This document shows positions 11,232 through 64,000 of a stretch of 64,000 nt of DNA, in pieces; the stretch's first letter is position 1, and each line of letters begins with the position of its first letter. The DNA comes from Candidatus Staskawiczbacteria bacterium (lineage in GTDB: Bacteria > Patescibacteriota > Minisyncoccia > Minisyncoccales > Staskawiczbacteraceae), in NCBI GenBank assembly GCA_903835075.1, contig CAILLM010000002.1:16920-80919 (forward strand). Direction: 5' to 3'. Made by a program: the position numbers and the translations under genes. The notes below the pieces were generated by a model. It had not been told where the DNA came from. It made no database searches and saw only the letters and a list, made by a program, of their open reading frames with translations.

Positions 11232-11387
11232 AATAATACCTTATTTAAAGGTACCTAACCTTAACATACTTTCCGTAAAAAAACAAGCCCCGTTAGAAAT
11301 CGTGATTTCTAACGGGGCAAGCCCACTTTTATAAAATAAAAAAGCCGACGATTTGATTCGTCGGCGAGAAGCTTTGACTTGCTTGTT

Positions 11388-19274: not shown

Positions 19275-19444
19275 GTTTTCTATTATATAATAAAATTATC
19301 AAAATGTCAAATTATGCCCTTCGACTTCCTTCGGCGCGGCTCAGGGCAGGTCGCTCAGGGTTGTTTTACTTTTTATTTATTATTTAGAAAGTAAAACAAA
19401 AAAAGACCGCTGGGTGTACCCTGCGGTTTGGGGTCGTTGTGGTT

Positions 19445-25906: not shown

Positions 25907-26660
25907 AAATTATGTTTGCCCATAGCGCATAACCTGTGGCTGATGGGTGAAATAAATCTTTTGAATAATATGAATTTGATTTTTCTCCCTTCGGGAGATC
26001 TCCCGTAGGGTGATTAAATTCTTCTTTGGCAGGAGAATATAAATCAATATAACTTAAATTATATTTTGTTGCCAAATTTTTAATTATTTTGTTGAATTGA
26101 TTTGTTTTAAAATCAAAATAATAGTTCCAAGGAGGTAGAATTAAGGTATTTGCTCCTATATAGGGAATATTAATTAAATAAATTTTAGCAGAAGTTTTTG
26201 TGGTTAGTTGTTTTATGATTTCTTCATAATTTTTTTGAAATTCTGATTTTGAAACAAAGTTGTGGATGTCATTAACTCCAATTAGTAGAGTAGCAACATT
26301 AGGGTTGCTGGCAACTGCTTGTGGAAGAAAAAAATTTTTTACGTCAATGCTTTTGTAGCCAAGCTCGGAAAGATTTTTTAAGGTTATGCTGTTATTTTGA
26401 GCAAGGTTTTTGGCAATTAAATATGGGTAAGTTTGTTGGTAGTTTTCAGTACCTGCTCCTGCCGTTAGACTGTCACCCATAGCGATGTAAACTAGATTTG
26501 TTTTACTAATATTGTTGCTAATTGTATAGGTTTGGCTTTTTTCTGGAGTTTTTAAGTTGGCATTATGAATTTCTTGGTAAATGTAGGCGTAAGCTCGATT
26601 CAAATAAACCACAGATGTAGTTAAAATTAATAAAATAATAAATAGAGCAATTTTTTTCAT
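25887..26660 (-). CDS. SGNH/GDSL hydrolase
   Basis: AMGDSLTAG, GVNDI and DLFHPS blocks. Start set at MKKIALF (signal peptide). In-frame GC-rich element at 25984-26010. Confidence 0.8.
   Translation of the reverse strand: MKKIALFIILLILTTSVVYLNRAYAYIYQEIHNANLKTPEKSQTYTISNNISKTNLVYIAMGDSLTAGAGTENYQQTYPYLIAKNLAQNNSITLKNLSELGYKSIDVKNFFLPQAVASNPNVATLLIGVNDIHNFVSKSEFQKNYEEIIKQLTTKTSAKIYLINIPYIGANTLILPPWNYYFDFKTNQFNKIIKNLATKYNLSYIDLYSPAKEEFNHPTGDLPKGEKSNSYYSKDLFHPSATGYALWANIIYANFNK
25984..26010. repeat. GC-rich double mini-hairpin element, in-frame in the SGNH hydrolase
   Basis: tctcccttcgggagatctcccgtaggg, a near-identical copy of 10706-10733. Encodes PTGDLPKGE. Confidence 0.85.
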
Positions 26661-28827: not shown

Positions 28828-29580
28828 ATGAAAAATACACAGTTAAGTAAAGAACAAATCGAGCACTTCTATAACAACGTGCTGACTCCCCTAAACATCA
28901 CTCGGACCGAGTGGCAATATGTCCTCGAATCGGGCATCATACCCGATATTATCGCCGGAAAGCGGCGTCGAGGATACTTTGTCCGAGGTGAAGTTCGGCA
29001 GGCGCTCGGCCTTGACGAATGGCCAGAGCCAACCTACTTTGATGTTATCGTGAAAGTTAACCGCAGCCTCACGCTACGGGATTCGCTAATTATTACGGGA
29101 TGTGAAATCCAGCCCGAAAATATTCCCGACCGCTCGTTTGCCGGACCCCCCGAAGAGAACGTCACTGTGACTATTTTCCACTTCGGCAAAGGCCGACAGA
29201 TGGAACACGAGGAGGTTTTTGAAGAGCTGAGGGCTTATGGATATCGGCCGGTTTTGGTCGAAGAAATTCTTGCCCTTAGTGCTCAGAAGCCGCACCTTCA
29301 GTCTAAATTCCCGATTGCGGGAGTGGGCTGCAACCAAGGTGTTCATCTCTTCTGGATGATCGACAGTCCTGTCACAAGGACTGGGCCAAGGAAGCGTCGC
29401 GTTGGCATCTTCAACAAATATGATACGGTCTATGATTTCTATCGAGTCGCGGCAGTGAGAGACTTGAGCATCGTTGCGACCAAGTACTTCTCCTCTTTCG
29501 CTACCACGGAAGAAAAGGAAGTCCTGTTCGTGGACGCTGAGCATGCTGCCATGGAGTCAGCTTATCGGACAGTTGAATAA
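28828..29580 (+). CDS. Hypothetical protein (GC-rich islet)
   Basis: 250-aa ORF with no recognised motif. Own promoter and a terminator at 29753-29782. Confidence 0.6.
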   Translation: MKNTQLSKEQIEHFYNNVLTPLNITRTEWQYVLESGIIPDIIAGKRRRGYFVRGEVRQALGLDEWPEPTYFDVIVKVNRSLTLRDSLIITGCEIQPENIPDRSFAGPPEENVTVTIFHFGKGRQMEHEEVFEELRAYGYRPVLVEEILALSAQKPHLQSKFPIAGVGCNQGVHLFWMIDSPVTRTGPRKRRVGIFNKYDTVYDFYRVAAVRDLSIVATKYFSSFATTEEKEVLFVDAEHAAMESAYRTVE

Positions 29581-31291: not shown

Positions 31292-31512
31292 GTGAGCAAC
31301 TCTTTTTTGCGATGTATCCGTAATGATAATGTCGCCAGGCTAGTATCTTGGAGACACAACTAGTTTTTTAGGGTCTCTTACGACCATATTACGCAAGAAA
31401 CAAAACGCCCTTTTGGGGCGTTTTGTTTTATGCTGAAAATTGGGCATCTTGCACGATTATAAAAAATAATATACAATAGAGTTGATTTACCCGCCAAAAT
31501 TTTTAGGTATGT

Positions 31513-31767
31513 ATGTATTACGTTTATATTTTGCAAAGCAAAAAGGATAATGATCTATATACGGGGTGTACAAATGATTTAAAAAAGAGGTTTTTATTGC
31601 ACAATAGTGGAAAAATTTTTTCTACCAAAGACAGAAAACCATTTAAAATAATATATTATGAAGCTTTTTTAAATCAAAGAGATGCCTTTGCGAGAGAGCA
31701 ATGGTTAAAAACTGGCTGGGGTCGTAATCATATTAATAAAATATTAAGTAATTACCTAAAAATTTAG
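31513..31767 (+). CDS. GIY-YIG nuclease-domain protein (short, UPF0213-like)
   Basis: YYVYILQS...LYTGCTNDLKKRFLLHN. 84 aa. Confidence 0.8.
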   Translation: MYYVYILQSKKDNDLYTGCTNDLKKRFLLHNSGKIFSTKDRKPFKIIYYEAFLNQRDAFAREQWLKTGWGRNHINKILSNYLKI

Positions 31768-31775
31768 GCGGGTTA

Positions 31776-32522
31776 ATGGAGATATCATTAAAAGCTGAAG
31801 ACATATTCAGTATAGGAAATTTTAATATTACAAATGGGTTGTTGCTGGCTGCAGTGGTGTCTTTAATTTTAATAATTTTTGCAGTTATTTTTAGAAGCAA
31901 AATTAAAATGGTTCCTGGAAAAGTGCAAGCAGTTGTAGAAATGGGATTAGAGGGACTTTTAGGATTAATGGAATCAGTACTAGGTACAAGAGCTGCAGCA
32001 GAAAAATATTTGCCGTTAATAGCGACAATTTTTATTTTTGTGTTAACATCTAATTGGCTGGGGTTATTGCCTGGAGTTGGGTCATTTCATATAAAAGTAG
32101 GCGAGGATGTGGTGCCTTTATTTCGTTCGCCAGCAGCAGATTTAAATTTTACTTTAGCTTTGGCGATAATAGCAGTTTTTACAACTAATTTTTTTGGGAT
32201 TGTTGTTTTGGGAACATTTACACATATTAAAAAGTTTATAAACTTTTCTAGCCCAATTAATTTTTTTGTTGGAATATTGGAATTTTTATCAGAAATATCT
32301 AGAGTAATATCGTTTTCTTTTAGGTTATTTGGAAATATTTTCGCTGGAGAAGTTTTATTAACAATAATATTTTTCCTATTACCATATATAGTGCCTATTC
32401 CTTTTATGTTTATGGAGATATTTTTTGGAGCAATTCAGGCTTTAATTTTTGCAATGCTAACATTGGTATTTTTATCTGCCAGCATTGCTTCACATGGAGA
32501 GGAACACGCCACAGAGCATTAA
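31776..32522 (+). CDS. atpB: F0F1 ATP synthase subunit a
   Basis: LSFRLFGNIFAGE motif. Operon context. Confidence 0.92.
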   Translation: MEISLKAEDIFSIGNFNITNGLLLAAVVSLILIIFAVIFRSKIKMVPGKVQAVVEMGLEGLLGLMESVLGTRAAAEKYLPLIATIFIFVLTSNWLGLLPGVGSFHIKVGEDVVPLFRSPAADLNFTLALAIIAVFTTNFFGIVVLGTFTHIKKFINFSSPINFFVGILEFLSEISRVISFSFRLFGNIFAGEVLLTIIFFLLPYIVPIPFMFMEIFFGAIQALIFAMLTLVFLSASIASHGEEHATEH

Positions 32523-36045: not shown

Positions 36046-37020
36046 ATGGAATCACCACAGAACATAAAGAAAAGACTGAGGTCAGTCAATAATATAAACA
36101 AAATTACTAAGGCCATGGAAATGGTTGCGGCTACTAAAATGCGTAAATCGCAGGAAATAGCCCTAGCCAGCAGGCCTTATGCTTTTGCGGCACTTGATTT
36201 TTTGGCAACAGTTTCCAACTTAGATTCGGCAAAATTGCCAGAATTGTTTCACGATAGGACAAAAAATCCTTCGACAAGCTCAGGACCGCGGGTTTTATTT
36301 GTTTTGGTGTCTTCTGACAAGGGCTTGGCGGGAGCATTTAACAGTTCGGTTTTTAGAAAATTCGCCGCCCATTTTGAAAAATGGGCGAGCCTCGCCCCAA
36401 AGGGGCGGGAGGAGCAATTGTTTGTCGCGATTGGTGAAAAAGCAAATCAGTATTTATCAAAAAAGGGTTACAACGTTGTAAAAAAATTTACAGCAGTTGG
36501 CGACCATACCACAGTAGAGCAAGTTAAGCCAATCGCTGATTTTATTGTTGAAGGTTTTTTGGCGGAAAGCTGGGACAGGGTAGTTGTTGTTTCAACACAT
36601 TTTAGAAGTGCATTAAAACAAGAACCGCACGTACGCACAATCTTGCCTATTGATTTTGATCATATTGCAGAAACAATAAAAGAAATTATTCCCGAGCGCG
36701 GAAAATTTGCTGATTTGATAAAAGAACAAAACATAAGTTTTATACCAAGCAAAACCGATTCAAGGGATTATTTAATAGAACCGTCGGCAGAAGAAGTTTT
36801 AAATAATTTGGCAAAGCATTTATTTTTTATGCAAATGTACCATATAATTTTAGAAGCAAACGCATCCGAACATTCCGCCCGCAGAATGGCCATGAAAACA
36901 GCTTCTGACAACGCAAAAGATTTAGGAGACAGATTAAATTTACAATATAATAAATCAAGACAGTCGAGAATAACTACAGAAATTAGTGAAATCTCGGCGG
37001 GTGCTGAGGCATTAAGTTAA
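36046..37020 (+). CDS. atpG: F0F1 ATP synthase subunit gamma
   Basis: ITKAMEMVAATKMRK N-terminus and ITTEISEISAGAEAL C-terminus. In-frame GC-rich elements at 36267-36291 and 36384-36410. Confidence 0.93.
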   Translation: MESPQNIKKRLRSVNNINKITKAMEMVAATKMRKSQEIALASRPYAFAALDFLATVSNLDSAKLPELFHDRTKNPSTSSGPRVLFVLVSSDKGLAGAFNSSVFRKFAAHFEKWASLAPKGREEQLFVAIGEKANQYLSKKGYNVVKKFTAVGDHTTVEQVKPIADFIVEGFLAESWDRVVVVSTHFRSALKQEPHVRTILPIDFDHIAETIKEIIPERGKFADLIKEQNISFIPSKTDSRDYLIEPSAEEVLNNLAKHLFFMQMYHIILEANASEHSARRMAMKTASDNAKDLGDRLNLQYNKSRQSRITTEISEISAGAEALS

Positions 37021-41092: not shown

Positions 41093-42796
41093 ATGGAACA
41101 AGAAATTAAATTATGCCAAAATTGTAAAAAGGACTTTACTATAGAGCCTCAAGATTTTGATTTCTATGAAAAAATGAAAGTGCCAGCTCCAACGTTTTGT
41201 CCGGAATGTAGGTTTCAACGTCGCATAATGTTTCGCAATGAAAGGACGCTTTATAAGCGAAAGTGTGATTTGTGTGGCAAGGATGTGGTGACAATTTTTT
41301 CTTTAGATTCAAAATTGATTGTGTATTGCCAATCGTGTTGGTGGTCGGACAAATGGGACGATGGTGAATATTTTTTAGATTATAACCCAGAAAAACCGTT
41401 TTTTGAGCAAATGATTGAATTGCAGAAAAAAACTCCGCATATGGCTTTAGTGAGTGAATATGCAACATTGATTAACAGTGATTATGTAAATCACGCAGGA
41501 GGGCTTAAAAATTGTTATTTAATCTTTAACGCTGATTTTTGTGAAAATGTTTTATACTCAACAGTAGTTGTTCGAGTTAAAGATTCTTTGGATTGCCATA
41601 TGGTTGGCGAATCAGAGCTTATGTATGAAGACATTGATAGCACGGGTTATAAGCTATTTTTCTCCGAAAGTTGCACAAAATGTAGTGAATCTTATTTTTT
41701 AAAAAGTTGCATTGGTTGTGATAATTGTTTTGGTTGCATTAATTTAAGAAATAAAAAATACTGCATTTTTAATCAGCAATTTACGCGAGAAGAATATTTT
41801 GAAAAAATTAAGGAATACAAACTTAACAGTCATAGTGAATTGTTGAAGATTAGAAAAATAGTCGATGATTTTTGGTTGAAATATCCTAATAAATTTATGC
41901 ACAAAGACGCCCAGTGCGTCAATGTTTCTGGGGAATATGTTTTTCGTGCAAAAAATGCTTTAAACTGTTATCAGGCGCGCGAGCTGGAAGATGCTCGTTA
42001 TTGTCAGTTTATAACAATGCCACCGGCTAAAGATATTTATGATCTTACCGAGTGGGGGATGGGTGTTCAGCGGGTAGTAGATGTCACGGGCGTTGGCGAT
42101 GGGGCTGACATGGTCAAATTTAGCATGAATGCCTGGCATCAAGGAACTATGGAGGTGGAATATGGGATGTATAATATATCATGTCAAAATGTTTTTGGTT
42201 GCATTAACCAGAAGAAAAAACAATATAGTATTTTAAATAAGAAGTATTCGTCGGAGGAATATTTTGCTTTGCGTGCGCAAATCATAGAAGACATGGAAAA
42301 AAATCCTTATGTTGATTCTGTGGGAAGAATTTGGCATTATGGAGATTTCTTGCCATATGACTTAAGCCCATTCACATATAACGAATCTCAAGCAATACAA
42401 TATTACCCGCTTTCTAAAGAAGAAATTTTAAAAAAGGGATGGACATGGCGTGAGCCAGTTACGAGCAGTCACGTTATAACAATACCGGCCAATAAAATCC
42501 CCGACAATATTAATGAAACACAAGATTCAATATTAAGAGAAATTTTAGGATGCGATTTGTGCGGTAAAGCTTTTAAAATAACTTCGGCTGAGTTCGCGCT
42601 TTTAAAGCGTTTTGGATTTTCTGTTCCACATTTTTGCTCGGATTGTCGGCATATGGAGCGCATTAAACGAATTAACCCGCCTAAATTATGGAATCGTAAT
42701 TGTGCTAAATGCAACACAGCATTTCAAACATCTTACGCGCCCGATAGGCCGGAAATTGTGTATTGCGAAGGCTGTTACAATAACGAAGTAAATTAA
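41093..42796 (+). CDS. Cys-rich multi-zinc-ribbon protein, paralog A
   Basis: N-terminal CQNCKKDFTIEPQDFDFYEKMKVPAPTFCPECRFQRR (zf-trcl-like). Central repeats of the GCINLRNKKYCIFN type. C-terminal double ribbon ending RPEIVYCEGCYNNEVN. Confidence 0.75.
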   Translation: MEQEIKLCQNCKKDFTIEPQDFDFYEKMKVPAPTFCPECRFQRRIMFRNERTLYKRKCDLCGKDVVTIFSLDSKLIVYCQSCWWSDKWDDGEYFLDYNPEKPFFEQMIELQKKTPHMALVSEYATLINSDYVNHAGGLKNCYLIFNADFCENVLYSTVVVRVKDSLDCHMVGESELMYEDIDSTGYKLFFSESCTKCSESYFLKSCIGCDNCFGCINLRNKKYCIFNQQFTREEYFEKIKEYKLNSHSELLKIRKIVDDFWLKYPNKFMHKDAQCVNVSGEYVFRAKNALNCYQARELEDARYCQFITMPPAKDIYDLTEWGMGVQRVVDVTGVGDGADMVKFSMNAWHQGTMEVEYGMYNISCQNVFGCINQKKKQYSILNKKYSSEEYFALRAQIIEDMEKNPYVDSVGRIWHYGDFLPYDLSPFTYNESQAIQYYPLSKEEILKKGWTWREPVTSSHVITIPANKIPDNINETQDSILREILGCDLCGKAFKITSAEFALLKRFGFSVPHFCSDCRHMERIKRINPPKLWNRNCAKCNTAFQTSYAPDRPEIVYCEGCYNNEVN

Positions 42797-42848
42797 TATA
42801 GAAACAGCCGAAGTCCTGAGCCGTGCCGAAGGACGAAACTTGCTACCA
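42746..42848. repeat. 103-nt near-identical block (3' end of paralog A plus downstream)
   Basis: Matches 44560-44662 with only 3 mismatches, whereas the gene bodies are strongly diverged. Confidence 0.85.
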
Positions 42849-42942: not shown

Positions 42943-44610
42943 ATGGAACAAGATGCGCGTAATTGTCAGAATTGCAAAAGCGAGTTTGTAATTGAGCCCG
43001 ATGATTTTGCGTTTTACGAAAAAATGAAGGTACCAGCACCAACATTTTGCCCAGAGTGCAGGAGACGAAGAAGATTGTCTTGGCGAAATGATTTTGTTTT
43101 TTATAATCGTAATTGTGATTTGTGCAAAAGAAACATAATTTCAATTTATTCTCCGGATAGCCCTCAAGTAATTTATTGCAATAAATGTTGGTGGGGTGAT
43201 GGCTGGGATCCAAAAAAATATGCACAAGATTTTGATTTTAGCCGTACTTTTTTTGAGCAATTTAAAGAATTTCGCCTAAAAGTGCCAACTCTTGCTTTAA
43301 CTAATGACAATAATATAGGAAGTGAAAATTGTGAATATACGCAAAATTTTGCTTTGGGTAAAAATTGCTATATGACAATGGTTTCTTGGAAGGTTGAAAA
43401 TTGTATGTACACTTGTTATGCCGCTGAAACAAAAGACACAGTGGATTCAATGGGAATTTTTAGCACTGGCGAAGGTCTTTACGAGGTAATGTATAGTGAA
43501 AAATGTTTTGGATGTAGAAATATCTATGGTTCTTCAAGTCTTATGAATTGCGCCTATTGTACAGAATGCGTGGGCTGTGAAAATTGCTTTATGTGTATAA
43601 ACTTGCGGAATAAGCAATATTATATTTTAAATAAACCCTATTCCAAAGAGGAGTACGAAAAGATTATAAATTCTTATAAATTAGAAACGCTTAGCGGAAG
43701 CGAAAAAGCCAGAGTTGAATTTGAGGCTTTTTTACGCACTCAGCCAAGGAGATTTGTTTCTTCAAGGAATTGCGTTAATTGCACGGGAAACAACATAATT
43801 AATAGCAAAAATGCAAAAAATGTTTTTCATTGTCGCAGATCGGAAGATTCTAAATATTTAGAGAATGGCGATACCCAAAAAGATAGTTATGACTTGTGCG
43901 TTGGTGGGGAACTTTCAGAATGTTATGAGGGTATAACTCCAGATAACTCAAACAAAGCATTGTTTTCTATTTATACATGGAAATGCATGGATGTAGCTTA
44001 TTCGGAATTTTTGCAATCTTCAAAAAATTGTTTTGGCAGTGTTGCTTTAAAACATGGTGAATATTCAATTTTTAATAAACAATACACCAAAGAAGAATAT
44101 TTTAAGTTAAAAGATGAAATTATAGAGCATATGAAAAAAAGTGGAGAATGGGGGGAGTTTTTTCCAATAAATTACTCACCATTTTCCTATAATGAATCCA
44201 TGGCAATGGTAGATTTTCCTTTAACAAAAGAAGAAGCTTTGATAAAAGGTCTTAATTGGCAAGATAATATTCAGGAAACCAAGGGCAAAACAACTTTAAA
44301 AAATATTCCAGATAGCATAAATAATGTTGAGGATTCAATTTTAAATGAAATTTTAGAATGTTCTGTTTGTGAAAGAAATTATAAAATAGTTACTGATGAG
44401 CTGGCTTTTTATAGAAAATGGAAAATTCCAGTACCTACAAAATGCTTTTTTTGTAGAATTAAAAAAAGACTAGAAATTCGCGGGCCATCTAGGCTTTGGC
44501 ATAGGAATTGCATGAATAAAGGTTGCACAAATGAATTTGAAACCAGCTATGCGCCCAACAGGCCGGAAATTGTGTATTGCGAAGGCTGTTACAATAACGA
44601 AGTAAATTAA
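42943..44610 (+). CDS. Cys-rich multi-zinc-ribbon protein, paralog B
   Basis: Same architecture as 41093-42796. N-terminal CQNCKSEFVIEPDDFAFYEKMKVPAPTFCPECRRRRR. Confidence 0.75.
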   Translation: MEQDARNCQNCKSEFVIEPDDFAFYEKMKVPAPTFCPECRRRRRLSWRNDFVFYNRNCDLCKRNIISIYSPDSPQVIYCNKCWWGDGWDPKKYAQDFDFSRTFFEQFKEFRLKVPTLALTNDNNIGSENCEYTQNFALGKNCYMTMVSWKVENCMYTCYAAETKDTVDSMGIFSTGEGLYEVMYSEKCFGCRNIYGSSSLMNCAYCTECVGCENCFMCINLRNKQYYILNKPYSKEEYEKIINSYKLETLSGSEKARVEFEAFLRTQPRRFVSSRNCVNCTGNNIINSKNAKNVFHCRRSEDSKYLENGDTQKDSYDLCVGGELSECYEGITPDNSNKALFSIYTWKCMDVAYSEFLQSSKNCFGSVALKHGEYSIFNKQYTKEEYFKLKDEIIEHMKKSGEWGEFFPINYSPFSYNESMAMVDFPLTKEEALIKGLNWQDNIQETKGKTTLKNIPDSINNVEDSILNEILECSVCERNYKIVTDELAFYRKWKIPVPTKCFFCRIKKRLEIRGPSRLWHRNCMNKGCTNEFETSYAPNRPEIVYCEGCYNNEVN

Positions 44611-44662
44611 TATAAAAACAGCCGAAGTCCTGAGCCGTGCCGAAGGGCGAAACTTGTTACCA
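44560..44662. repeat. 103-nt near-identical block (3' end of paralog B plus downstream)
   Basis: See 42746-42848. Confidence 0.85.
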
Positions 44663-44818: not shown

Positions 44819-45908
44819 ATGGCAGAAATAACTCCACAAATTGAAGAGCTTGAATCACGCCTCCAGAATTTGGGAGACCGTCTTTGACATAACCGGAAAA
44901 GAAAAGAAATTAAAAGAATTAGAAGACGAGTCTGTAACGCCAGATTTTTGGAATAATAACGAACATGCAACAGAAGTTCAGCAAGAAATTTCAGAAATAA
45001 AAAATGAGATTTCAGCTTTAGAAGAAATAAAGAAAGATATAACCGCCTTCGCCGAAGGCTTCGGCGAGTCAAGGGAAGATTTAAATAAAAAGATAGAAAA
45101 ATTGGAATTTAAAACCTATTTATCTGGCAAATATGACAAAAATAATGCAATTTTAGAAATATTTTCTGGCGCAGGTGGGCAAGATTCGCAAGATTGGTCA
45201 ACAATGCTTTTACGAATGTATGAGAGATATTGCAACAGCAAGGGTTGGAAAACTGAAATTTTACATCAAGCATTTGGAGAGGGTGGTGGACCAGAAGGAA
45301 GAATTGGCACAAAATCTGTCACAATAGAAATAAAGGGAAGTCATGCATATGGATTTTTGAAAAAAGAAGCAGGGGTGCACAGGCTAGTAAGGCTTTCACC
45401 GTTTAATTCGCAAAAACTTAGACACACTTCCTTTGCTTTAGTAAATGTTTTGCCCGAGATAAAGGATAGCGAATTATCCGCCCTAGGCGGACCAGCCTCG
45501 GGCTGGGAAATTAGGCCAGATGATTTAAAAATTGATACCTTTAAGGCTTCTGGACCAGGCGGACAGTATGTTAACAAAACAGAATCAGCAGTAAGAATTA
45601 CGCACATACCAACGGGAATTGTTGTGGCTTCACAAACCGAAAGATTGCAGGGAAAGAACAAAGATAAGGCAATGAAAATATTGGTTGCAAAACTATACCA
45701 GTTGCGCGAAGAACAACACGTAAAAGAAATTAAAGAAATAAAAGGGGAAAACATTTCTGTGCGTTTTGGAAATCAAATAAGGTCTTATGTTTTACACCCA
45801 TATAAAATGGTAAAAGACTTACGCACACTTTACGAAGCATCTGATGCAGAAGGAGTTTTAGATGGGGATTTAGAAAAATTTATTGAAGCTGAAATAAAAC
45901 ATGATTAA
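44819..45908 (+). CDS. prfB: Peptide chain release factor 2, with programmed +1 frameshift
   Basis: Frame 0: MAEITPQIEELESRLQNLGDRL then CTT TGA C at 44882-44888, preceded by GGGAG. The +1 frame continues as DITGKEKK... SPF-equivalent region and GGQ motif (SGPGGQYVNKTESAVR). Confidence 0.92.
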
Positions 45909-47510: not shown

Positions 47511-47628
47511 TATAGACCGTAATATTGCGAGATCGTCCCTCGGCCGTAGCCCGTTGGTCTACAGCCTACGGGCGAGGCTAACGGCCCCGCCTTAGCGGGG
47601 TCCCGCTGTGGCGGGATAAGACACTACT

Positions 47629-47868
47629 ATGTATTTTGTTTATATTCTCAAAAGTATAAAAGATTCTAAATATTATATTGGTCAAACCGAAAATTTAAGC
47701 GATAGGTTGAATAAGCATAACGTAGGACAAGTTAAATCAACACGTAATAGAAGGCCTTTTGTTTTGATAAAATCAGAAATTTTTGATACAAGGAGTGAAG
47801 CTAGAAAAAGAGAAAATTATTTGAAAAAACTAAAGGGTGGTAATGAATTTAAAAAAATAATAAACTGA
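47629..47868 (+). CDS. GIY-YIG nuclease-domain protein (short)
   Basis: YFVYILKS...YYIGQTENLSDRLNKHN. Paralog of 31513-31767. Confidence 0.8.
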   Translation: MYFVYILKSIKDSKYYIGQTENLSDRLNKHNVGQVKSTRNRRPFVLIKSEIFDTRSEARKRENYLKKLKGGNEFKKIIN

Positions 47869-47886: not shown

Positions 47887-47960
47887 TGCGGGATCGTCTA
47901 ATGGTAGGACACGTCCCTCTGAAGGATGTTATCTAGGTTCGAGTCCTAGTCCCGCAGCCA
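47887..47960 (+). tRNA. tRNA-Gln (CTG)
   Basis: Hand-folded. Acceptor tgcggga/tcccgca (U1-A72), anticodon loop ctCTGaa, T-loop ttcgagt, encoded CCA. Confidence 0.85.
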
Positions 47961-48031: not shown

Positions 48032-48079
48032 AAACAAACTAAAAAGGCATAGAATTTTCCATGCCTTTTTAGTTTGTTT
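48032..48079. terminator. Long perfect hairpin at the end of the RT gene
   Basis: aaacaaactaaaaaggcat / atgcctttttagtttgttt: a 19-bp perfect stem overlapping the RT stop codon. Confidence 0.7.
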
Positions 48080-49604
48080 ATAAGGTAACTTTTTGGGCAT
48101 TATCAAATTGAGACTTAAGATCATCAAGCACCTTTTTCTTTTTAGTTAATGCGCGCATTCTGATTATACTGCTGCTAGCTTCTCCTAACTGTCCTAGACT
48201 ATGCCCGGAATGATAAATTTCAACTTCATCTATAATTATATATCGGTCATGTGATTCAAAGCGTCCTTTATCTTTCAGACTTTCTCTGCAATCAATTTGT
48301 ATTTCTGGATGAAGATTAATGAGTTTTTTCAATTCACCGATACAATCTTCATATTTCTTTTTATTCTCTTGTGATATTAAGAGCTTAAAATTTATTAGCT
48401 TATTTTTAGACAGTATGCTCTCCAATAGGCTAACGATAGTCCCCTTCAAATAATTATCAATAATAAAGATTTCTCGCGTGGCACAAAGGAATATCGTTTC
48501 CAGAAAATTCAACCCCTTATAAAGTTCACCCCGTACAAAATGCTCTTCTTCCGGCCAGTTTTTTATTGGAATAATTTCAAATATTTTTTTTTCAGCTAGG
48601 CTGTTAAATTTTTCTGCGAGTATTCTATATGTATTGTCTCCTTTAGTTTTAATCTGTTTTATGAAATTTATTTTACCCTTAAGGGATTCATAGAAATCTG
48701 TACAATATTTATTTTGGTATTGTGCGCTGGCATTTTTTATTCCGAATTTTTTCCAAATATGTAGCATCATTCGTACCTCTTTTATGAACTCTCTCTTAAC
48801 ATTAGGAAACTTATTAACAATAAGACCAGTGACTTCTTGTCTTTCCGTATAAAAGCGGATCCTTGTTTTGTTAGGATTTATTTCAAATCCATTTCCAACA
48901 ACTATCTCATTTAATTTTGGTCCAGCAATCCATTCGCTAGCACCACCCTCAAGCATATTCTGAGAAAATCCGTTTCTATTATTAGTTGAGAATACTATAT
49001 CGTCAGCGTATCTGGAGTATATGCAATGCTCTTCGTACGCAAAGTGCTGTAATTGATAGTCTAATTTAGAACAAATCATGTTAGAAATTATCGGTGATGT
49101 CGGAGCGCCTTGAGGTAAAACACCCTTATGACAACAGAAACCAGCTATTATTGTAGCGCCATTTTTAGATAAGCCATATGGAAAAGCTTGCAATATGCCA
49201 CGAATTCTTCCAAAATGAATCGTCGGAAAAAAATCTTTTAGATCGATGTTTAGCAATGCTTTATGACGTATGTGTTTCTCGGCATTTGTGATGATGCTTT
49301 TTCCTTGTCGAAAACCGTGTACTGAAGCCCTGCCGATATATATTAAGGAGAGTACATGAGCCAATCTACGTTGAATAAATTTTAATTTATATTTTGGAGA
49401 TAGAATTTGTCTTTTTTCACCAGATTTTTTATTTATAAAAAATTCCGTATAATGTTTTTCTTGATATCTTGTTTCGCCAAATATTCTTTCTAAAGCATAA
49501 GCATTAAATTCAAGTAAGTCAGCAAGCGTCCCAAAATTACTCACTCTGTGAAATTTTTCAATTAATTCATCGTCAGTTGCTTTAAATGATGGTCGCATAT
49601 GCAT
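48078..49604 (-). CDS. Retron-type reverse transcriptase fused to a C-terminal PLD-like (HxR-x4-D) domain
   Basis: RT motifs: ITNAEKHIRHK, DLKDFFPTI, LPQGAPTSPIISN, YSRYADDIVFS, RQEVTGLIVN. About 190 extra C-terminal residues contain FIIDNYL and SHDRYIIIDEVEIYHSGHSL. Start moved to MHMRPSF because the upstream part of the ORF overlaps the a2 repeat. Confidence 0.85.
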   Translation of the reverse strand: MHMRPSFKATDDELIEKFHRVSNFGTLADLLEFNAYALERIFGETRYQEKHYTEFFINKKSGEKRQILSPKYKLKFIQRRLAHVLSLIYIGRASVHGFRQGKSIITNAEKHIRHKALLNIDLKDFFPTIHFGRIRGILQAFPYGLSKNGATIIAGFCCHKGVLPQGAPTSPIISNMICSKLDYQLQHFAYEEHCIYSRYADDIVFSTNNRNGFSQNMLEGGASEWIAGPKLNEIVVGNGFEINPNKTRIRFYTERQEVTGLIVNKFPNVKREFIKEVRMMLHIWKKFGIKNASAQYQNKYCTDFYESLKGKINFIKQIKTKGDNTYRILAEKFNSLAEKKIFEIIPIKNWPEEEHFVRGELYKGLNFLETIFLCATREIFIIDNYLKGTIVSLLESILSKNKLINFKLLISQENKKKYEDCIGELKKLINLHPEIQIDCRESLKDKGRFESHDRYIIIDEVEIYHSGHSLGQLGEASSSIIRMRALTKKKKVLDDLKSQFDNAQKVTL

Positions 49605-49610
49605 ATCTTT

Positions 49611-49755
49611 TTGGGGGCAAAGATATATTCTCACTTTGCGCATGAACATAAGCAAACACTATAACTGCGCCTAGCACGCCACAGGCGTGATCCTATGAAC
49701 TTTTTAAAAATCGCCGCGAATACACAGCGTAATCAATATTTATCTTTGCCCCCAA
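49611..49755 (-). ncRNA. Candidate retron msr-msd non-coding RNA bounded by a1/a2 inverted repeats
   Basis: A perfect 15-bp inverted repeat, ttgggggcaaagata (49611-49625) and tatctttgcccccaa (49741-49755), brackets 115 nt immediately 5' of the RT start. Internal hairpin cacgcc-tgt-ggcgtg. Putative promoter TTGTAT, 17 nt spacer, TAATAT just upstream. Confidence 0.55.
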
Positions 49756-49839
49756 TTTATATTACTAAGCTATATAAATCAATACAAGTCCTATGTGAAA
49801 CTTAGTAAAAAGGTGCATATAATATACGTGTCTTTTTAG

Positions 49840-51156
49840 TTATTCCAATATGATATTTTTATCTTTTAAGATTAGTTTACTTTTTAAGAAGAACAGCAGT
49901 TCGCGTTTTTCAATAAGCGTTCCTTCTCGTAGAAGATATTTTGTATAATTTCTCACGTCGATATCTGAGTTGTGGGTTTCTTTTTTGTGACCTAGTACAC
50001 CAATCCTGAATTTATTAAATCTTGCCAATTCGTTTTCAATTGCATTTTTAACTCCAAGCTCATCCAAGTCAATTTTGTCCATTAAGTTTATAAGCTCTTC
50101 TATTAAGCTCGGCTCATTGATGGCGGGATTTTTGCAGTCTATATTTCTGGCCTTACTACAAAAGTAGTATACGTGGCGATTTACTCCGCCATCTTTAAGC
50201 TTTTTGAATTTCTCGTCAGCAGATATTCCTGATCCACAATATCCACATTTAATCAGCTTGGTGAAGGCGAATTCCTTTGATTCTGTTTTCGGTACAAATT
50301 TTTCGTTTAGGGTTAGTTGCACCTTATCGAATAATTCTTTGCTAATTATTGGTGTATGCTTTCCGTTGTACCAATTGCCACTGCCAATAGGATATTCAAA
50401 CTCACCGTAATAGAATGGATTCCTTAGAATTAGATAAATATTACCAAGCACCAAAGATTTTCCAGTTTTGGTTTTAAATCCTACATTAATGAGCCAACGA
50501 TATGTTTTCCTGCCCGACCATTGTTCGTTAGCAACTTTCTCGAACATCTGCTTTATATAAGGAGCTCGTTTTGGATCTATTCTGCATTGGCATTTTTTAT
50601 CAACGTGCTTTTCATTTAAATATCCAGTTGGTGCTACGCCTGGGCGATACCCCATTTCACAACGGGTTTTTAGTCCACGCTTTACATTGAGGGCCTTATT
50701 GTCATTTTCCAGTTTCGCCTGGCTTCCGAGAATCATTAGCAAAAATTTCTCGTTTGGATTATTGGTAAACCTTTGTCCGTGAGTCCTAATTTCAATGAGT
50801 AATTTTTGATCCATTAAATCTACCACTGAACCCAAGTCCCCTGCGTTTCGGCTGAGCCTGTCAGGCGCCCATGTCAGAATAGCATTATATTTTCCTTCGC
50901 GAATTTCAGTAATCATTTTATTAAAAATGATTCTTTGCCCAACTTCCTTGGATGAGTGAGCTTCGCGCTTAATGTCTATGATGTTTAGGCTATCCCGTTG
51001 TGCCAGCGTCAGCATCTCCTTAACCTGCGATTCTATAGATAATGCTTGTTTATCCTCAGCCTCCGTAGATTTCCTTGCATAGAGACAATATTTGAGTATT
51101 GGTGCGACTATAACGGGGGATTGCCGACTATTTTGTGTTGTTGCTATTTGTTGCAT
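49840..51156 (-). CDS. Large serine recombinase
   Basis: N-terminal resolvase domain (YARKSTEAEDKQALSIESQ), recombinase domain and zinc ribbon (CGYCGSG...YYFCS). 438 aa. Confidence 0.85.
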   Translation of the reverse strand: MQQIATTQNSRQSPVIVAPILKYCLYARKSTEAEDKQALSIESQVKEMLTLAQRDSLNIIDIKREAHSSKEVGQRIIFNKMITEIREGKYNAILTWAPDRLSRNAGDLGSVVDLMDQKLLIEIRTHGQRFTNNPNEKFLLMILGSQAKLENDNKALNVKRGLKTRCEMGYRPGVAPTGYLNEKHVDKKCQCRIDPKRAPYIKQMFEKVANEQWSGRKTYRWLINVGFKTKTGKSLVLGNIYLILRNPFYYGEFEYPIGSGNWYNGKHTPIISKELFDKVQLTLNEKFVPKTESKEFAFTKLIKCGYCGSGISADEKFKKLKDGGVNRHVYYFCSKARNIDCKNPAINEPSLIEELINLMDKIDLDELGVKNAIENELARFNKFRIGVLGHKKETHNSDIDVRNYTKYLLREGTLIEKRELLFFLKSKLILKDKNIILE

Positions 51157-51301
51157 AATTTTTTGTTTAGTTGTTAATATTCCATATTCGACCTTTGCAA
51201 TGACAAGGATGACGCAACCGCGCTAAGGAGTCCAGACCCCGTCAGTTGGTAAGGCTTCGCTTTACGAGGAGCTTTTTTCGGTATAAAATAAAGTAATTAA
51301 T

Positions 51302-52054
51302 ATGCCAATTTTTAATGATTTAAATTTAAATAATTGGAAGGATTCAGAAATTTGGACCGATAGTCTTTGGTTAATTCCTGAAAGAGATAAAACAGGAAAA
51401 CATGACGGATTTTATCATGGTAACTTTGTTCCCCAAATACCTCGTCAACTAATCTTGAGATATACAAAAAAGAACGATGTTATTTTTGATCCTTTTGTTG
51501 GTAGCGGGACAACTGCTTATGAGGCTGAAAGTTTGAGTAGACATTTTATTGGTATTGATATACAGGAAGCTTTAGTTGAGAAATTAAAATCAAGAGTAGA
51601 TAATAATAAATATTTTTCAGAGATTATTCTTGGCGACAGTGCAAAAGAACTTGTTTATGATAAAGTGAATGAAATTTTAGAGAAACAAAAAAAGAAAAAT
51701 ATTAATCTGGCAATTTTACATCCTCCTTATGCCGATATAATTAAATTTAGTGATTCGAAGGACGATTTATCAAACGTAAAATCGCTAAAAGAATTTTTAG
51801 ATAAATTTGCGGAGGTTCTTAAGAATACGATTAAAATTCTTGAAAATGGGAGGTATTTAGCAATTATTATTGGTGATAAATATTCTGCCGGTCAGTGGAT
51901 ACCATTATCTTTTTATTGTATGAATGAAGCTCAAAAATTAGGATTAACACTCAAAAGCGTTATAATAAAGAATATGGCAGGTAATCGTGCCAAACAAAAT
52001 AAGGAAGCGATTTGGCGGGTAGCGCAGAATACACTTGGGTTTGTGACCCAGTAG
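51302..52054 (+). CDS. N6-adenine/N4-cytosine DNA methyltransferase, probably altered or truncated at the 3' end
   Basis: Motif I DPFVGSGTTAYEA and motif IV ILHPPYADI. The reading frame runs into the IMPase fragment. Confidence 0.7.
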   Translation: MPIFNDLNLNNWKDSEIWTDSLWLIPERDKTGKHDGFYHGNFVPQIPRQLILRYTKKNDVIFDPFVGSGTTAYEAESLSRHFIGIDIQEALVEKLKSRVDNNKYFSEIILGDSAKELVYDKVNEILEKQKKKNINLAILHPPYADIIKFSDSKDDLSNVKSLKEFLDKFAEVLKNTIKILENGRYLAIIIGDKYSAGQWIPLSFYCMNEAQKLGLTLKSVIIKNMAGNRAKQNKEAIWRVAQNTLGFVTQ

Positions 52055-61712: not shown

Positions 61713-62726
61713 TTATTCTTCGGTGCCTGCCTGCTTGGTAGGCATGTTGTGAGACTTAGAGTTAACTTCGTAGTTTGTGTTTTGAGCTTCAAAAAAGTTA
61801 ACTAATTCATAAACATCTGTTGCCGTGCTCATCCATTTTGCAGGATTTGTTGCATTGTAGTGTGGAGCAAATCCCAATTCTTCCATTCTTCTGTCAGCAA
61901 CATATTGCACATATTGATTAACATAATCTGCATTTAGTCCCAAAATTCCTCTTGGAAATAAGTTTTTGTTATATTCGGTTTCTAAATCAACGCCCTTAAT
62001 AATTATTTGTTTAATTTCTTCAGCAAATTCTGCAGAAACTATTTCCGGATTTTCTTCAAGCAAAGTTAAAACCAAATTAATGCCAAATTTTAAGTGTAAA
62101 CTTTCGTCGCGTAAAACCCAATTTATCATTGAAGCTAAGTTTCGTAATTTATTTCTTTGCCTAAAAGAAAGCATAACCATAAATCCCGAATAAAACCAAA
62201 CCCCCTCCATAACAATGTTGTAAGCTGCAAGGTTTCTAATAAAATCTTTTTTACCTTCAATTGTTGTTACATCATAAGTGTCTTCGGTCATTCTAGCCAC
62301 ATAATCATTAATATAATCTTCTTTAGCCTTCATTGATGGCGTAGTAATATGTGTTTCATATATCTTAGTTCTATCTAGTGGTAAAGTTTCTAAAACATAT
62401 TCAAAGGCAACGCAGTGGTTGGCCTCTTCCCACATTTGTTTTGCCAAGTACAAGTGGCACTCAGCAGATTTCAAATAAGGGTAAACGCCCAAAGCTAAAA
62501 CCCTATTAACAACTAATTCTGCAGGATTAAAAAATGACATGACAAATTCAACTGCATATTTTTCGTCATCAGTCATTGTTGCCCAATCCTCTAAGTCTTC
62601 TTTTAGCGGTATCTCATGGGGGTACCAAGTGTTTGCAATAGCTTGGTCATATAATTCTCTTGCCCAAGGATATAAAGATGGGTGAATGTTATAATCTTTT
62701 GGTGATGCTTTTCCTATAAGTGCCAT
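61713..62726 (-). CDS. nrdB: Class I ribonucleotide reductase beta subunit
   Basis: Ferritin-like di-iron motifs (EEANHCVAF, MEGVWFYSGF, RDESLH). Confidence 0.92.
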   Translation of the reverse strand: MALIGKASPKDYNIHPSLYPWARELYDQAIANTWYPHEIPLKEDLEDWATMTDDEKYAVEFVMSFFNPAELVVNRVLALGVYPYLKSAECHLYLAKQMWEEANHCVAFEYVLETLPLDRTKIYETHITTPSMKAKEDYINDYVARMTEDTYDVTTIEGKKDFIRNLAAYNIVMEGVWFYSGFMVMLSFRQRNKLRNLASMINWVLRDESLHLKFGINLVLTLLEENPEIVSAEFAEEIKQIIIKGVDLETEYNKNLFPRGILGLNADYVNQYVQYVADRRMEELGFAPHYNATNPAKWMSTATDVYELVNFFEAQNTNYEVNSKSHNMPTKQAGTEE

Positions 62727-62902: not shown

Positions 62903-64000
62903 TTACTGACAACTGTCGCAAACAAATTTTTCTTGTGGATCTTCTGGGCTTCGAGGAGCAGAAACCTTGGCCATTATTGCTTCATATTCTGCAGGGTCTT
63001 GTTCGGGTATTCCAACTGCTCCCTTGTCCGCCGAAACTTTAGTGAAGGCGGAAAATCCAACTCTGCCCATTTTTTCTCTCTTATTCACTGACACTGTGCT
63101 TTGCTCTGCGGTATGTCTTGGTTTCATATGAAGATAATAGGTGGTTTTTAAACCTTTTTTCCAGGCTGCGCTGTATATATCCATAATTTCTTCTGTTATT
63201 CTGGTTTCTAGATACATATTTCTAGACAATGCTTGATCAACCCATTTTTGCGCACGAGCAGCAATTTCTACAAATGCATATGGGGAAGTAGTAAAAGCTG
63301 ATTTATATCTTTTCTTTAATTCTTGAGGTATTTTTTCAATACTTAAAATATCTCCTTGTTTTTCAACAATTTCATTTCTTACTTCATCCCAAATTTTTAT
63401 TTCTTTTAAGTCGTTAACTAGATTGTGATTTATATCTAAATATTTTCCAGATATTTTATTTCTAGAAAATACTTGAGCAAATCTAGGGTCGATTCCAGGA
63501 GTAGTTCCGGCCAAAAGTCCAATGTTTGCATTTGGTGCTACTGCCATTAATGTAGCATTTCTCATTCCTTGTTGAACTTTCTTTTTTAAATCAGCCCAAT
63601 TGATTTTAAGTTCTTGTGCGTGGCTAGTTTTATCTAAATCTAAACTTTCCCCCCTTGAGTTTTCTAATTGTTGTATTGTATCAAATGGCACTAACCCGCG
63701 AGACCACCCCGATCCAACAAAATTTTTGTAACTGCCACGTTCTTGTGCTAAGTTAGCGCTTTCATCTATGGCAACATAGCTTATAAATTCAAAAATCTTA
63801 TCTGCCATTTCAAATGTTTTTTCATCTTCATATCCTAATCTGAGTAATTCAACGGCCTCAGAAAAACCCATAACGCCCAAACCTATTGCTCTGTTTTCTT
63901 TGTCTGATTTTACAGCTTCTGGTATTGGCAATAAGTTGATGTCTATTAAGTTATCTAATTGCCTTACCGCTAATCTTGTGGTTGCTTCAAGTTTTTCCCA
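62903..64000 (-). CDS. nrdA: Ribonucleotide reductase alpha subunit, C-terminal part (gene continues beyond the window)
   Basis: LMAVAPNANIGLLAGTTPGIDP, TTYYLHMKPR and a C-terminal CDSCQ tail. Adjacent to nrdB. Confidence 0.85.
   Translation of the reverse strand, partial: WEKLEATTRLAVRQLDNLIDINLLPIPEAVKSDKENRAIGLGVMGFSEAVELLRLGYEDEKTFEMADKIFEFISYVAIDESANLAQERGSYKNFVGSGWSRGLVPFDTIQQLENSRGESLDLDKTSHAQELKINWADLKKKVQQGMRNATLMAVAPNANIGLLAGTTPGIDPRFAQVFSRNKISGKYLDINHNLVNDLKEIKIWDEVRNEIVEKQGDILSIEKIPQELKKRYKSAFTTSPYAFVEIAARAQKWVDQALSRNMYLETRITEEIMDIYSAAWKKGLKTTYYLHMKPRHTAEQSTVSVNKREKMGRVGFSAFTKVSADKGAVGIPEQDPAEYEAIMAKVSAPRSPEDPQEKFVCDSCQ

Follow-up and report, generated by a model that had tools for sequence, protein, structure and literature searches.

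Families of tiny GC-rich hairpins recur in core genes and beside GIY-YIG/tRNA cassettes of Candidatus Staskawiczbacteria and other bacteria

This work concerns a 64,000-nucleotide (nt) stretch of DNA from Candidatus Staskawiczbacteria bacterium (contig CAILLM010000002.1, positions 16,920 to 80,919), hereafter the window, and the short GC-rich palindromes that lie within its genes. The G+C content of the window is 35%. An earlier reading of the sequence (the original prediction) had singled out palindromes in prfB, obg and atpG, together with GC-rich 3′ ends of typA and nrdB. Two explanations were offered: repeated in-frame colonisation of core genes, or hairpin-templated repair. Our analysis indicates that most of the palindromes are probably copies of several families of tiny mobile DNA that are defined by their structure. 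The elements are possibly copied by repair of nuclease-made breaks and carried as translated selfish passengers. Insertion is precise, recurrent and family-wise; it occurs at short AT-rich sites, irrespective of reading frame, and is tolerated in loops. Furthermore, the elements are physically linked to mobile cassettes composed of a GIY-YIG nuclease gene and tRNA sequences.

Typically, the elements are built from 15-nt hairpins, each with a GC-rich stem of 6 bp (YCNSCC) and a loop of 3 nt. Two such units usually lie side by side and make a 30-nt double hairpin; element sizes span 18–32 nt in all. Coding copies have lengths divisible by three, are free of stop codons and occupy tolerant loops or linkers; non-coding copies include units of 32, 20 and 18 nt. 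Judged from their sequences, the coding inserts would be translated into Gly/Pro/Ala/Ser-rich peptides. They look like selfish passengers and not like adaptations of release factor 2 (RF2), Obg or ATP synthase.

Double hairpins in prfB, obg and other genes

We defined a hairpin as a perfect stem of at least 6 bp, having at least four G or C bases in the inner 6 bp, closed by a loop of at most 10 nt. The window contains 42 such GC-rich hairpins, about five times the number in shuffles that preserve local base composition. The expected number was 5.9 for mononucleotide shuffles and 8.4–9.5 for shuffles of 20–45-nt blocks, which preserve local GC spikes; the highest count in any shuffle was 19. 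Nineteen of the 42 hairpins are inside open reading frames (ORFs). Those between genes are mostly terminator-like, with flanking A-runs or T-runs. Many have the GC-rich hairpin and T run, 3′ of a gene, that mark intrinsic terminators, whereas the intragenic hairpins do not. DNA folding z-scores were −4.35 for positions 45477–45506, −2.85 for 45045–45068 and −3.83 for 10706–10735. The gene identities first assigned (prfB, obg, atpG, typA/bipA and nrdB) are correct, and all of the palindromes originally quoted are present in the sequence, one of them shifted by a single base.

The shifted palindrome, which we call E1, is in prfB. This gene encodes RF2 and has the usual +1 frameshift site (CTT TGA C, 44882–44888). 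E1 occupies positions 45477–45506 of the plus strand, not 45478–45507, and is made of two adjoining 15-nt hairpins, TCCGCC-CTA-GGCGGA and CCAGCC-TCG-GGCTGG. It is read in frame as SALGGPASGW, as had been predicted, in the linker joining the PCRF and GGQ domains; the peptide spanning its junctions is ...DSELSALGGPASGWEIRPDD... The insert was thought to replace the acidic linker of RF2. In fact it sits within the linker, between KDSEL and EIRPDD. Two syntenic relatives, L001 and L002, have RF2 proteins 83% and 80% identical to that of the window, and both lack E1. Compared with these relatives, 30 nt have been added between GAATTA and GAAATT, and RF2 alignments revealed no counterpart of the insert in the closest orthologs. 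At this point the protein is ~8 residues longer than solved RF2. We used an AlphaFold model of moderate quality (mean predicted local distance difference test score, pLDDT, of 64.6) solely for placing inserts. The model puts the RF2 inserts in loops and gives the E1 segment a pLDDT below 50. Elsewhere in RF2, residues 146–154 (window 45282–45300) form an extra GEGGGPEGR loop. It is present in all orthologs of this group and has no counterpart in solved RF2 proteins. The DNA of this loop, GGTGGACCAGAAGGA, resembles the middle of E1, GGCGGACCAGCC, and on that likeness the loop may be an insertion that became fixed long ago.

The prfB element was generalised to the search pattern TCCGCCNNNGGCGGACCAGCCNNNGGC, which has 21 fixed bases. 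At least 119 matching stretches were found among species-representative genomes; this count is a lower bound. By our calculation, about 0.3 matches would be expected by chance in 596 Gb at equal base frequencies. A few matches, in contigs of >65% G+C and without the final TGG, are probably due to chance. The consensus is TCCGCC-NNA-GGCGGA followed by CCAGCC-TNN-GGCTGG. Positions that the search left free are conserved too: the final TGG in 110 of 116 copies, the NNA of loop 1 in 108 and the TNN of loop 2 in 102. According to the record titles, E1 occurs in many lineages of the candidate phyla radiation (CPR). It is also present in metagenome-assembled genomes (MAGs) titled Omnitrophota, Planctomycetota, Verrucomicrobia, Bdellovibrionales, Lentisphaerales, Leptospira and Gammaproteobacteria. 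In a Global Ocean Sampling (GOS) contig, L250, all 30 bases of E1, loops included, are identical to those of the window, and the copy lies at a different position in RF2.

The boundaries of E1 are exact. Its flanks are unrelated and AT-rich, with a preference for TTT on the left and GA on the right. Long ORFs contain E1 in each of the six frames, and further copies are non-coding; the phase that yields SAxGGPAxGW is preferred (45 of 93). Putative host genes, named from translated flanks, include dnaJ (in the G/F regions) and the genes for MiaA, the CCA-adding enzyme and an aminoacyl-tRNA synthetase. An exact flank repeat is missing in 99 of 116 copies, and only a fifth have a 5-mer common to both flanks. 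There is no regular target-site duplication, merely an excess of short flank repeats. The idea that complementary flanks form a third stem found no support beyond the shared consensus. We also rejected phage as the usual carrier: E1 is not phage-borne as a rule, because only one viral contig in 2.9 million has it. Irrespective of family, adjacent double 15-nt hairpins numbered 242 in 1.68 Mb of DNA, compared with 0.33 in block shuffles. Stems that had not been searched for, nearly all of them YCNSCC, account for 22 of the 242. In the window itself, positions 63040–63058 carry GTCCGCC-(14 nt)-GGCGGA and then AAATCC. The 12-mer GGCGGAAAATCC of this segment corresponds to the end of E1 plus its commonest flank and is found at 8 loci. 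The segment may, by its sequence, be half an E1 element, or the likeness may be chance.

A second family, F1, has the consensus TCTCCC-TNC-GGGAGA followed by T[GC]TCCC-GNA-GGGA[CG]A and was found in at least 120 metagenome contigs. Its loops are TNC and GNA, and its flanks are TTG on the left and CAAA on the right. Like E1, F1 has non-coding copies as well as copies in each of the six frames of long ORFs, and its translations differ by frame (LPTGDLPKGE, SPYGRSPEGR or SLREISRRE). In the window, an F1-type element occupies positions 7989–8017 of obg, on the minus strand. The predicted palindrome at 7992–8013, CCTTCGG-GCGATCTG-CCGAAGG, is present and encodes (F)GRSPEGG; a further hairpin spans 8003–8017. 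This insert has no counterpart in the closest orthologs, and Obg orthologs are mostly 322 amino acids (aa) long and without GRSPEG. In other lineages, the same Obg loop has other GC-rich inserts: SALGGPALGG in an 85%-identical protein and a GLPAQA type in two others. Hence, across lineages, one loop holds three different element types.

Two copies of F1 that the original prediction did not list are also on the minus strand. One is in a variable loop of uppP/bacA (10706–10735, TCTCCC-TTC-GGGAGA and TGTCCC-GTA-GGGACA), where it is read (V)PTGHLPKGE. The other is in a GDSL-like hydrolase gene (25984–26011), where it is read (H)PTGDLPKGE. The two are identical at 26 of 27 nt and share the reading PTG[HD]LPKGE. 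Thus, F1 is used in two frames within the window, as FGRSPEGG in obg and as PTG[HD]LPKGEK in uppP and the GDSL gene. Since F1 is read in different frames, it is a DNA element and not a selected peptide; the frame switching of F1 and E1 rules out selection at the peptide level. The predicted in-frame colonisation of core genes is therefore borne out for the prfB linker and obg, and for atpG (see below), and extends to uppP and the GDSL gene.

E1 and F1 often lie inside tandem heptamers (AAAAGTC, CAATTTT/AAAATTG, CGTCCTT or CACATTC), as at loci L012, L023, L058, L072, L073, L078, L087, L132, L166, L174 and L190. The heptamer repeat stays in phase across the element on both sides.

Palindromes can cause mis-joins in short-read assemblers, and we found no other reason to suspect assembly or sequencing artefacts. 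Six independent assemblies of one population, from different samples and different assemblers, are 99.95–100% identical through all hairpins within 34841–55908. This near-identity excludes polishing artefacts, which the original prediction had allowed for. Furthermore, many unrelated MAGs, a single-cell genome and the GOS contig all have the E1 30-mer, which is also present in contigs from several assembly pipelines, and the inserts always keep the reading frame. An artefact is vanishingly unlikely.

A second alternative is that the palindromes are kept for their use to the host, whether as structures in mRNA or DNA (for pausing, processing, stabilisation, uptake or binding) or as flexible peptide linkers. 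Strong conservation of the stems beside variable loops is consistent with such a role. So is the NNA or GNA triloop, closed by C-G, on one strand of each hairpin, which we take to resemble very stable DNA mini-hairpins. The inserts also sit at domain boundaries, and every RF2 ortholog of this group has, without variation, a related insert, GGGPEG. However, the elements are patchily present among close orthologs, can be read in any frame, lie in both orientations, are spread over unrelated genes and non-coding sequence, and accumulate in a dead tRNA fragment. Moreover, the same sequence is found across phyla, unlike uptake sequences, which are lineage-specific. We therefore consider a host-serving function improbable.

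Other palindromes and element families

The atpG gene has two GC-rich segments on the plus strand. The palindrome that drew attention, at 36383–36410 (GGGCGAGCCTCGCCC-AAA-GGGGCGGGA), encodes WASLAPKGRE; within 36383–36407, GGGCGAG-C-CTCGCCC overlaps CGCCCC-AAA-GGGGCG. We assign it to a family, F4, of which the sequence GGCGAGCCTCGCCC..GGGCGGGA is found in 4 unrelated loci. Thus, the hairpin exists and its family recurs elsewhere, but the segment is not an addition, for both relatives have a diverged, less palindromic counterpart. The insert that both relatives do lack is one that had not been listed. It is an F2 element (TCCTTCGACAAGCTCAGGA..., 36267–36291), of which 21 nt (36268–36288) are inserted in frame and read PSTSSGP. 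This element has no strong hairpin (fold z-score +1.45). The F2 family, defined by a 19-mer, is present in 9 unrelated loci. In the window, the F2 motif has three intergenic copies besides the one in frame in atpG. Two of these, on the plus strand at 42802–42839 (CAGCCGAAGTCCTGAGCCGTGCCGAAGG) and 44616–44653, are 97% identical, the former lying after the first of two paralogous genes. The third, in the opposite orientation, belongs to a GC-rich cluster at 19315–19361 on the minus strand (CCTTCGGCGCGGCTCAGGGC). The paralogs (41093–42796 and 42943–44610) are arranged in tandem and their proteins are just 41% identical. Yet their last ~80 nt and the downstream F2-type element, 129 nt in total, are 92% identical, which suggests, as far as sequence can, gene conversion or a shared 3′ module.

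Families F2, F3 and F4 recur in unrelated loci, and so does the palindrome CTGCCTGCCGGCAGGCAG. We listed indels in codon alignments of the 22 genes common to the window, L001 and L002. Across ~20 kb of conserved syntenic genes in the three genomes, there are four lineage-specific insertions of at least 7 aa. All four are GC-rich (52–75% G+C) and two are palindromic. The window contributes LGGPASGW (prfB) and PSTSSGP (atpG); L001 contributes IDGEPASAK (atpA) and LPAGRQV, the last in a DUF192 gene and encoded by the perfect palindrome CTGCCTGCCGGCAGGCAG. Conversely, the indels of a fast-evolving surface protein are AT-rich.

The other palindrome predicted in prfB, at 45045–45068 (GCCTTCGCCGAAGGCTTCGGCGAG, plus strand), encodes AFAEGFGE and lies in a loop between two helices of domain 1. 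It is a true hairpin, or rather two overlapping perfect palindromes, at 45045–45059 (7-bp stem) and 45049–45067 (9-bp stem). In the relatives, a variable loop of equal length takes its place, so that no length is added. No relatives of this segment were found among the 1.57 Mb of comparison loci used for family searches. Matches of 12 nt all come from one multi-copy insertion sequence (IS) of a single MAG, and we rejected family membership on that ground. Hence, the segment is a singleton, which may have come by colonisation or have arisen in place.

The GC spikes at the 3′ ends of typA and nrdB are real. At the former (12122–12157, minus strand), the tail DAKRADRA aligns with the conserved C-terminal residues of solved BipA proteins (...DRKRASRS and ...DRRRANRA), and no related copies are present in the comparison loci. 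Alignment to conserved residues had been named beforehand as evidence against a colonising hairpin; we regard the tail as native coding sequence and excluded it from the families. At nrdB (61716–61745, minus strand), the tail MPTKQAGTEE is lineage-specific and differs from that of a 96%-identical relative. It has just an imperfect hairpin (CCTACC..GGCAGG) and a weak resemblance to the CTGCCTGCCGGCAGGCAG family, and so makes a weak case.

These palindromes bear on the possibility that hairpins arise in place, without a mobile element. During replication, by template switching or hairpin-templated repair, a nascent strand would copy sequence next to it, and a repeat that was imperfect would thereby become a perfect palindrome. 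The singleton at 45045–45067 replaces a variable segment of equal length, the atpG palindrome at 36383–36410 is perfect here and decayed in the relatives, and the short direct repeats around about a fifth of copies suggest slippage near hairpins. Yet at least 119 contigs, from many lineages, have the same 30-mer at sites unrelated to one another, and it is matched at 30 of 30 positions at two RF2 sites. GC-rich stems in a genome of 35% G+C, and conserved rules for flanks and loops, would also be left unexplained. Because identical 30-mers occur at unrelated sites in different phyla, hairpin-templated repair, the second mechanism put forward originally, is inadequate; it is possible solely for 45045–45067. 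As a general explanation, origin in place is unlikely.

Linkage to GIY-YIG nuclease genes and tRNA duplicates

The mobile-family interpretation gains a possible mechanism from a cassette next to the tRNA-Gln gene. Here, a partial duplicate of the tRNA-Gln 5′ part (TGCGAGATCGTC..TCTA..AACGG..TAAGACAC, 47527–47625, plus strand) is interrupted in the D-loop region by hairpin elements. The hairpin cluster, at 47539–47616, had not been listed. It includes a 32-nt double hairpin inside the tRNA-Gln fragment (47585–47616), CCCCGC-CTTA-GCGGGG followed by TCCCGC-TGTG-GCGGGA. The double hairpin is 12 nt upstream of a GIY-YIG nuclease gene (47629–47868, plus strand), and the intact tRNA-Gln gene (47887–47960) is downstream. 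The nuclease has 79 aa and consists of a Slx1-like/UPF0213 catalytic domain alone. In L001, the cassette is present with the 32-nt double hairpin only. In L002, the site is empty and ftsX adjoins tRNA-Gln. Only four tRNAs were detected in the window and none overlaps the elements; we thus rejected tRNAs or known RNA families as the identity of the elements.

A second GIY-YIG locus (31485–31777, plus strand) lies directly upstream of atpB. Its gene (31513–31767) encodes 84 aa and is flanked by imperfect inverted repeats, 31485–31533 and 31729–31777, with the outer ends ACCCGCC...GGCGGGT. L002 has no such gene upstream of atpB, and the unrelated contig L223 has the same inverted repeats without the gene. 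The two window proteins match the GIY-YIG domain PF01541 with E = 5e-19 and 2e-14, over residues 1–70 and 1–67 of the 79- and 84-aa proteins. Neither has a C-terminal DNA-binding domain of the I-TevI type. Scores with TIGR01453 were ~21 bits, far under the cut-off of 56. The nearest solved structures are 1ywl and 1zg2, two Slx1-like UPF0213 proteins from bacteria. Members of this branch are minimal stand-alone domains, and Slx1, the eukaryotic member of the family, is a structure-specific nuclease (PMC1564403).

The association is not confined to the window. In the 1.57 Mb of comparison loci, 10 of 23 small GIY-YIG genes have E1 or F1 at most 100 nt away, where we estimate from locus lengths that ~2 would be expected. 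In all ten, the copy is 5′ of the likely true start codon, within a partial duplicate of the adjoining tRNA gene; in L018 and L054 a second copy follows the nuclease gene. E1 and F1 adjoin GIY-YIG genes in different lineages. F1 copies are in the anticodon loop of a tRNA-Cys 5′ fragment, between CTG and CAAAACC, and are followed by the nuclease gene and then by intact tRNA-Cys. Furthermore, where E1 is non-coding, its host is in many cases a partly duplicated neighbouring tRNA gene, with E1 placed exactly in the D-loop or T-loop. We rejected the possibility that tRNA genes are interrupted and then restored by excision: after removal of E1, ARAGORN found no tRNA across the junction. The loci, when read directly, have E1 in partial duplicates beside an intact gene.

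These data are consistent with the following scheme. The elements would be the ends or substrates of Slx1-like GIY-YIG cassettes that insert beside tRNA genes. In these cassettes, the double hairpin lies exactly at the junction, with target-like sequence on either side. The nuclease would make a break at a look-alike site elsewhere, and repair of that break from the cassette donor, guided by microhomology, would copy the hairpin alone. Cleavage and microhomology repair of this kind would lead to exact boundaries, to no regular target duplication and to F1 flanks like the tRNA-Cys junction. Tentatively, then, the 15-nt modules may be the recognition and junction structures of a hitherto unrecognised kind of mobile cassette with a Slx1-like GIY-YIG nuclease, the solo 30-nt hairpins being ectopic products of microhomology-guided repair.

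Several points count against mobile hairpin families and this mechanism. The six assemblies are identical at every element; they have no presence/absence polymorphism, and neither transposition nor cleavage was seen to take place. The link to the nuclease could be an indirect one, with displaced tRNA fragments serving as neutral DNA that carries preferred target motifs. The E1 flanks in coding genes, GRWTTT on the left and GAWTTT on the right, match no single tRNA junction well. The model does not predict the short direct repeats or tandem heptamers that surround about a fifth of the copies, and the F2 family, not being a hairpin, is unaccounted for by the mechanism. Taxonomy of the matches outside CPR is that of MAG record titles. 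By their sequences, the prfB segment at 45045–45067 and the typA tail stand outside every family that we found. Finally, it is solely their length and freedom from stop codons that would indicate that the inserts are translated and not removed from the RNA.

Further observations concern the cassette loci. Just after the GIY-YIG/tRNA-Gln locus, positions 48078–52054 encode a reverse transcriptase (RVT_1), a large serine recombinase and an N6/N4 DNA methyltransferase. The genes at this place are different ones in L001 and L002, and the segment looks like an island inserted at the tRNA. In L026 and L054, the tRNA-like gene after the nuclease seems, from its appearance only, to be extended at the anticodon loop by a long structured insert, possibly a group I intron like those reported in tRNA genes of Patescibacteria. 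Hairpins and GIY-YIG genes are unmentioned in a recent survey of tRNA introns in Patescibacteria.

Known systems and further observations

The elements can be set beside several known systems. Rickettsia palindromic elements (RPEs) are in-frame selfish repeats in housekeeping genes (Ogata et al. 2000; PMC10969869). Like RPEs, the present elements are palindromic, belong to a small genome that is AT-rich, lie in frame in its unrelated protein-coding genes (prfB, obg, atpG, uppP and the GDSL gene) and would add a peptide at tolerant sites. A transposase is known for neither. RPEs are ~100–150 bp long, confined to Rickettsia and have one conserved peptide per family, whereas our elements have 18–32 nt, consist of 15-nt modules, are read in several frames and are spread over many CPR lineages as well as MAGs whose titles name other phyla.

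The behaviour of the elements matches that of RPEs and, even more closely, that of mitochondrial GC clusters and double-hairpin elements. The mobile G+C clusters of yeast mitochondria, among them the optional clusters of var1, are likewise short, GC-rich and palindromic in an AT-rich genome, and optional in frame in a gene and in non-coding DNA; they stay in the transcripts (PMC2800124), as our inserts would. Double-hairpin elements of Allomyces mitochondria and hairpin elements of sponge mitochondria consist of two adjacent GC-rich stem-loops of 26–79 nt without flanking duplications. Their sites are intergenic, within protein genes or within variable regions of RNA genes, and they vary in presence between close relatives (Paquin et al. 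2000; PMC2800124). Our elements share the two adjacent GC-rich stem-loops in an AT-rich genome, the optional presence and the lack of flanking duplications. They differ in that the Allomyces and sponge elements are organellar and species-restricted, whereas ours are on bacterial contigs, have identical stems, indeed an identical 30-mer, across distant lineages and recur at GIY-YIG/tRNA junctions. The yeast clusters differ in being organellar and 30–50 bp long, with reported movement like that of DNA transposons; they have no sequence relation to our elements and no known tie to GIY-YIG or tRNA genes. Recombination and double-strand breaks have been linked to the yeast clusters.

Repetitive extragenic palindromic sequences (REPs), their inverted doublets (REPINs) and the REP-associated tyrosine transposases (RAYTs) offer another parallel. 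These are small GC-rich hairpins with many dispersed copies, often inverted doublets, and are presumed to be bound, as single strands in folded form, by a dedicated nuclease-type enzyme encoded next to them. REPs are extragenic and species-specific, have a conserved 5′ tetranucleotide and depend on a Y1 (HUH) transposase. The flanked gene here encodes a GIY-YIG nuclease, and the 19 window ORFs scanned include no Y1 transposase. [quoted passage not shown] E1 is an inverted doublet of two related hairpins, as a REPIN would be. However, more than half of the E1 and F1 copies are in long open frames and not extragenic, and no GTAG-type 5′ tetranucleotide is seen in the logos of the elements and their flanks. 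The terminal inverted repeats (beyond the hairpins themselves) and fixed-length target duplications of MITEs are lacking. In different lineages, E1 and F1 alike lie next to GIY-YIG genes, which also counts against this reading. In a Candidatus Moanabacter MAG, E1 lies ~150 nt past the stop codon of a multi-copy DDE transposase gene (L011, L016, L037, L039, L047, L056, L071, L094, L097 and L119), which would favour an IS as the mobiliser. These copies are one insertion, amplified together with its carrier IS; E1 is a passenger in the end region of the DDE element, and we rejected the IS transposase as mobiliser. A transposon derivative is thus very unlikely.

Free-standing GIY-YIG homing endonuclease genes, such as T4 SegB in a tRNA gene cluster (PMC2330249), resemble our cassettes in lying beside tRNA genes and in varying between relatives; the catalytic domain and the occupied and empty alleles (the latter in L002) are found here too. 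Homing enzymes differ in having a DNA-binding domain, which is missing from ours, and in having no hairpin satellites. The present genes encode a Slx1-like catalytic domain of 79–84 aa only, and are accompanied by a double hairpin and a duplicated piece of tRNA. In size, modular build, host range and GIY-YIG/tRNA context, the elements differ from all of the systems compared, and searches of the full-text literature, including by peptide and DNA strings, found no description of them.

Selfish DNA within genes that code for proteins has so far been a curiosity of Rickettsia and mitochondria; here it takes the form of much smaller units. The genes affected include those for RF2, Obg, ATP synthase gamma, DnaJ, MiaA, an aminoacyl-tRNA synthetase and the CCA-adding enzyme. 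The elements are a hidden source of indels in alignments of CPR marker proteins and produce spurious conserved motifs (for example, SAxGGPAxGW and LPTGDLPKGE). Proteins may also gain flexible loops from them. The position of the GIY-YIG gene and the duplicated tRNA fragment offers a testable hypothesis for mobilisation of DNA by structure-specific nucleases. If the cassettes do act as proposed, this would be a new route for moving DNA, one that steadily writes short Gly/Pro-rich loops into core proteins across phyla.

Two other features of the window deserve mention. An intergenic hairpin at 11287–11321 has a 14-bp stem, GCCCCGTTAGAAAT-CGTG-ATTTCTAACGGGGC. Its arms recur in at least four unrelated loci and, from this recurrence, it appears to represent another dispersed family. 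The ORF at 28828–29580 has no Pfam match, contains several 24-nt windows of at least 70% G+C and has hairpins at 28899–28913 and 28929–47; it may be foreign DNA.

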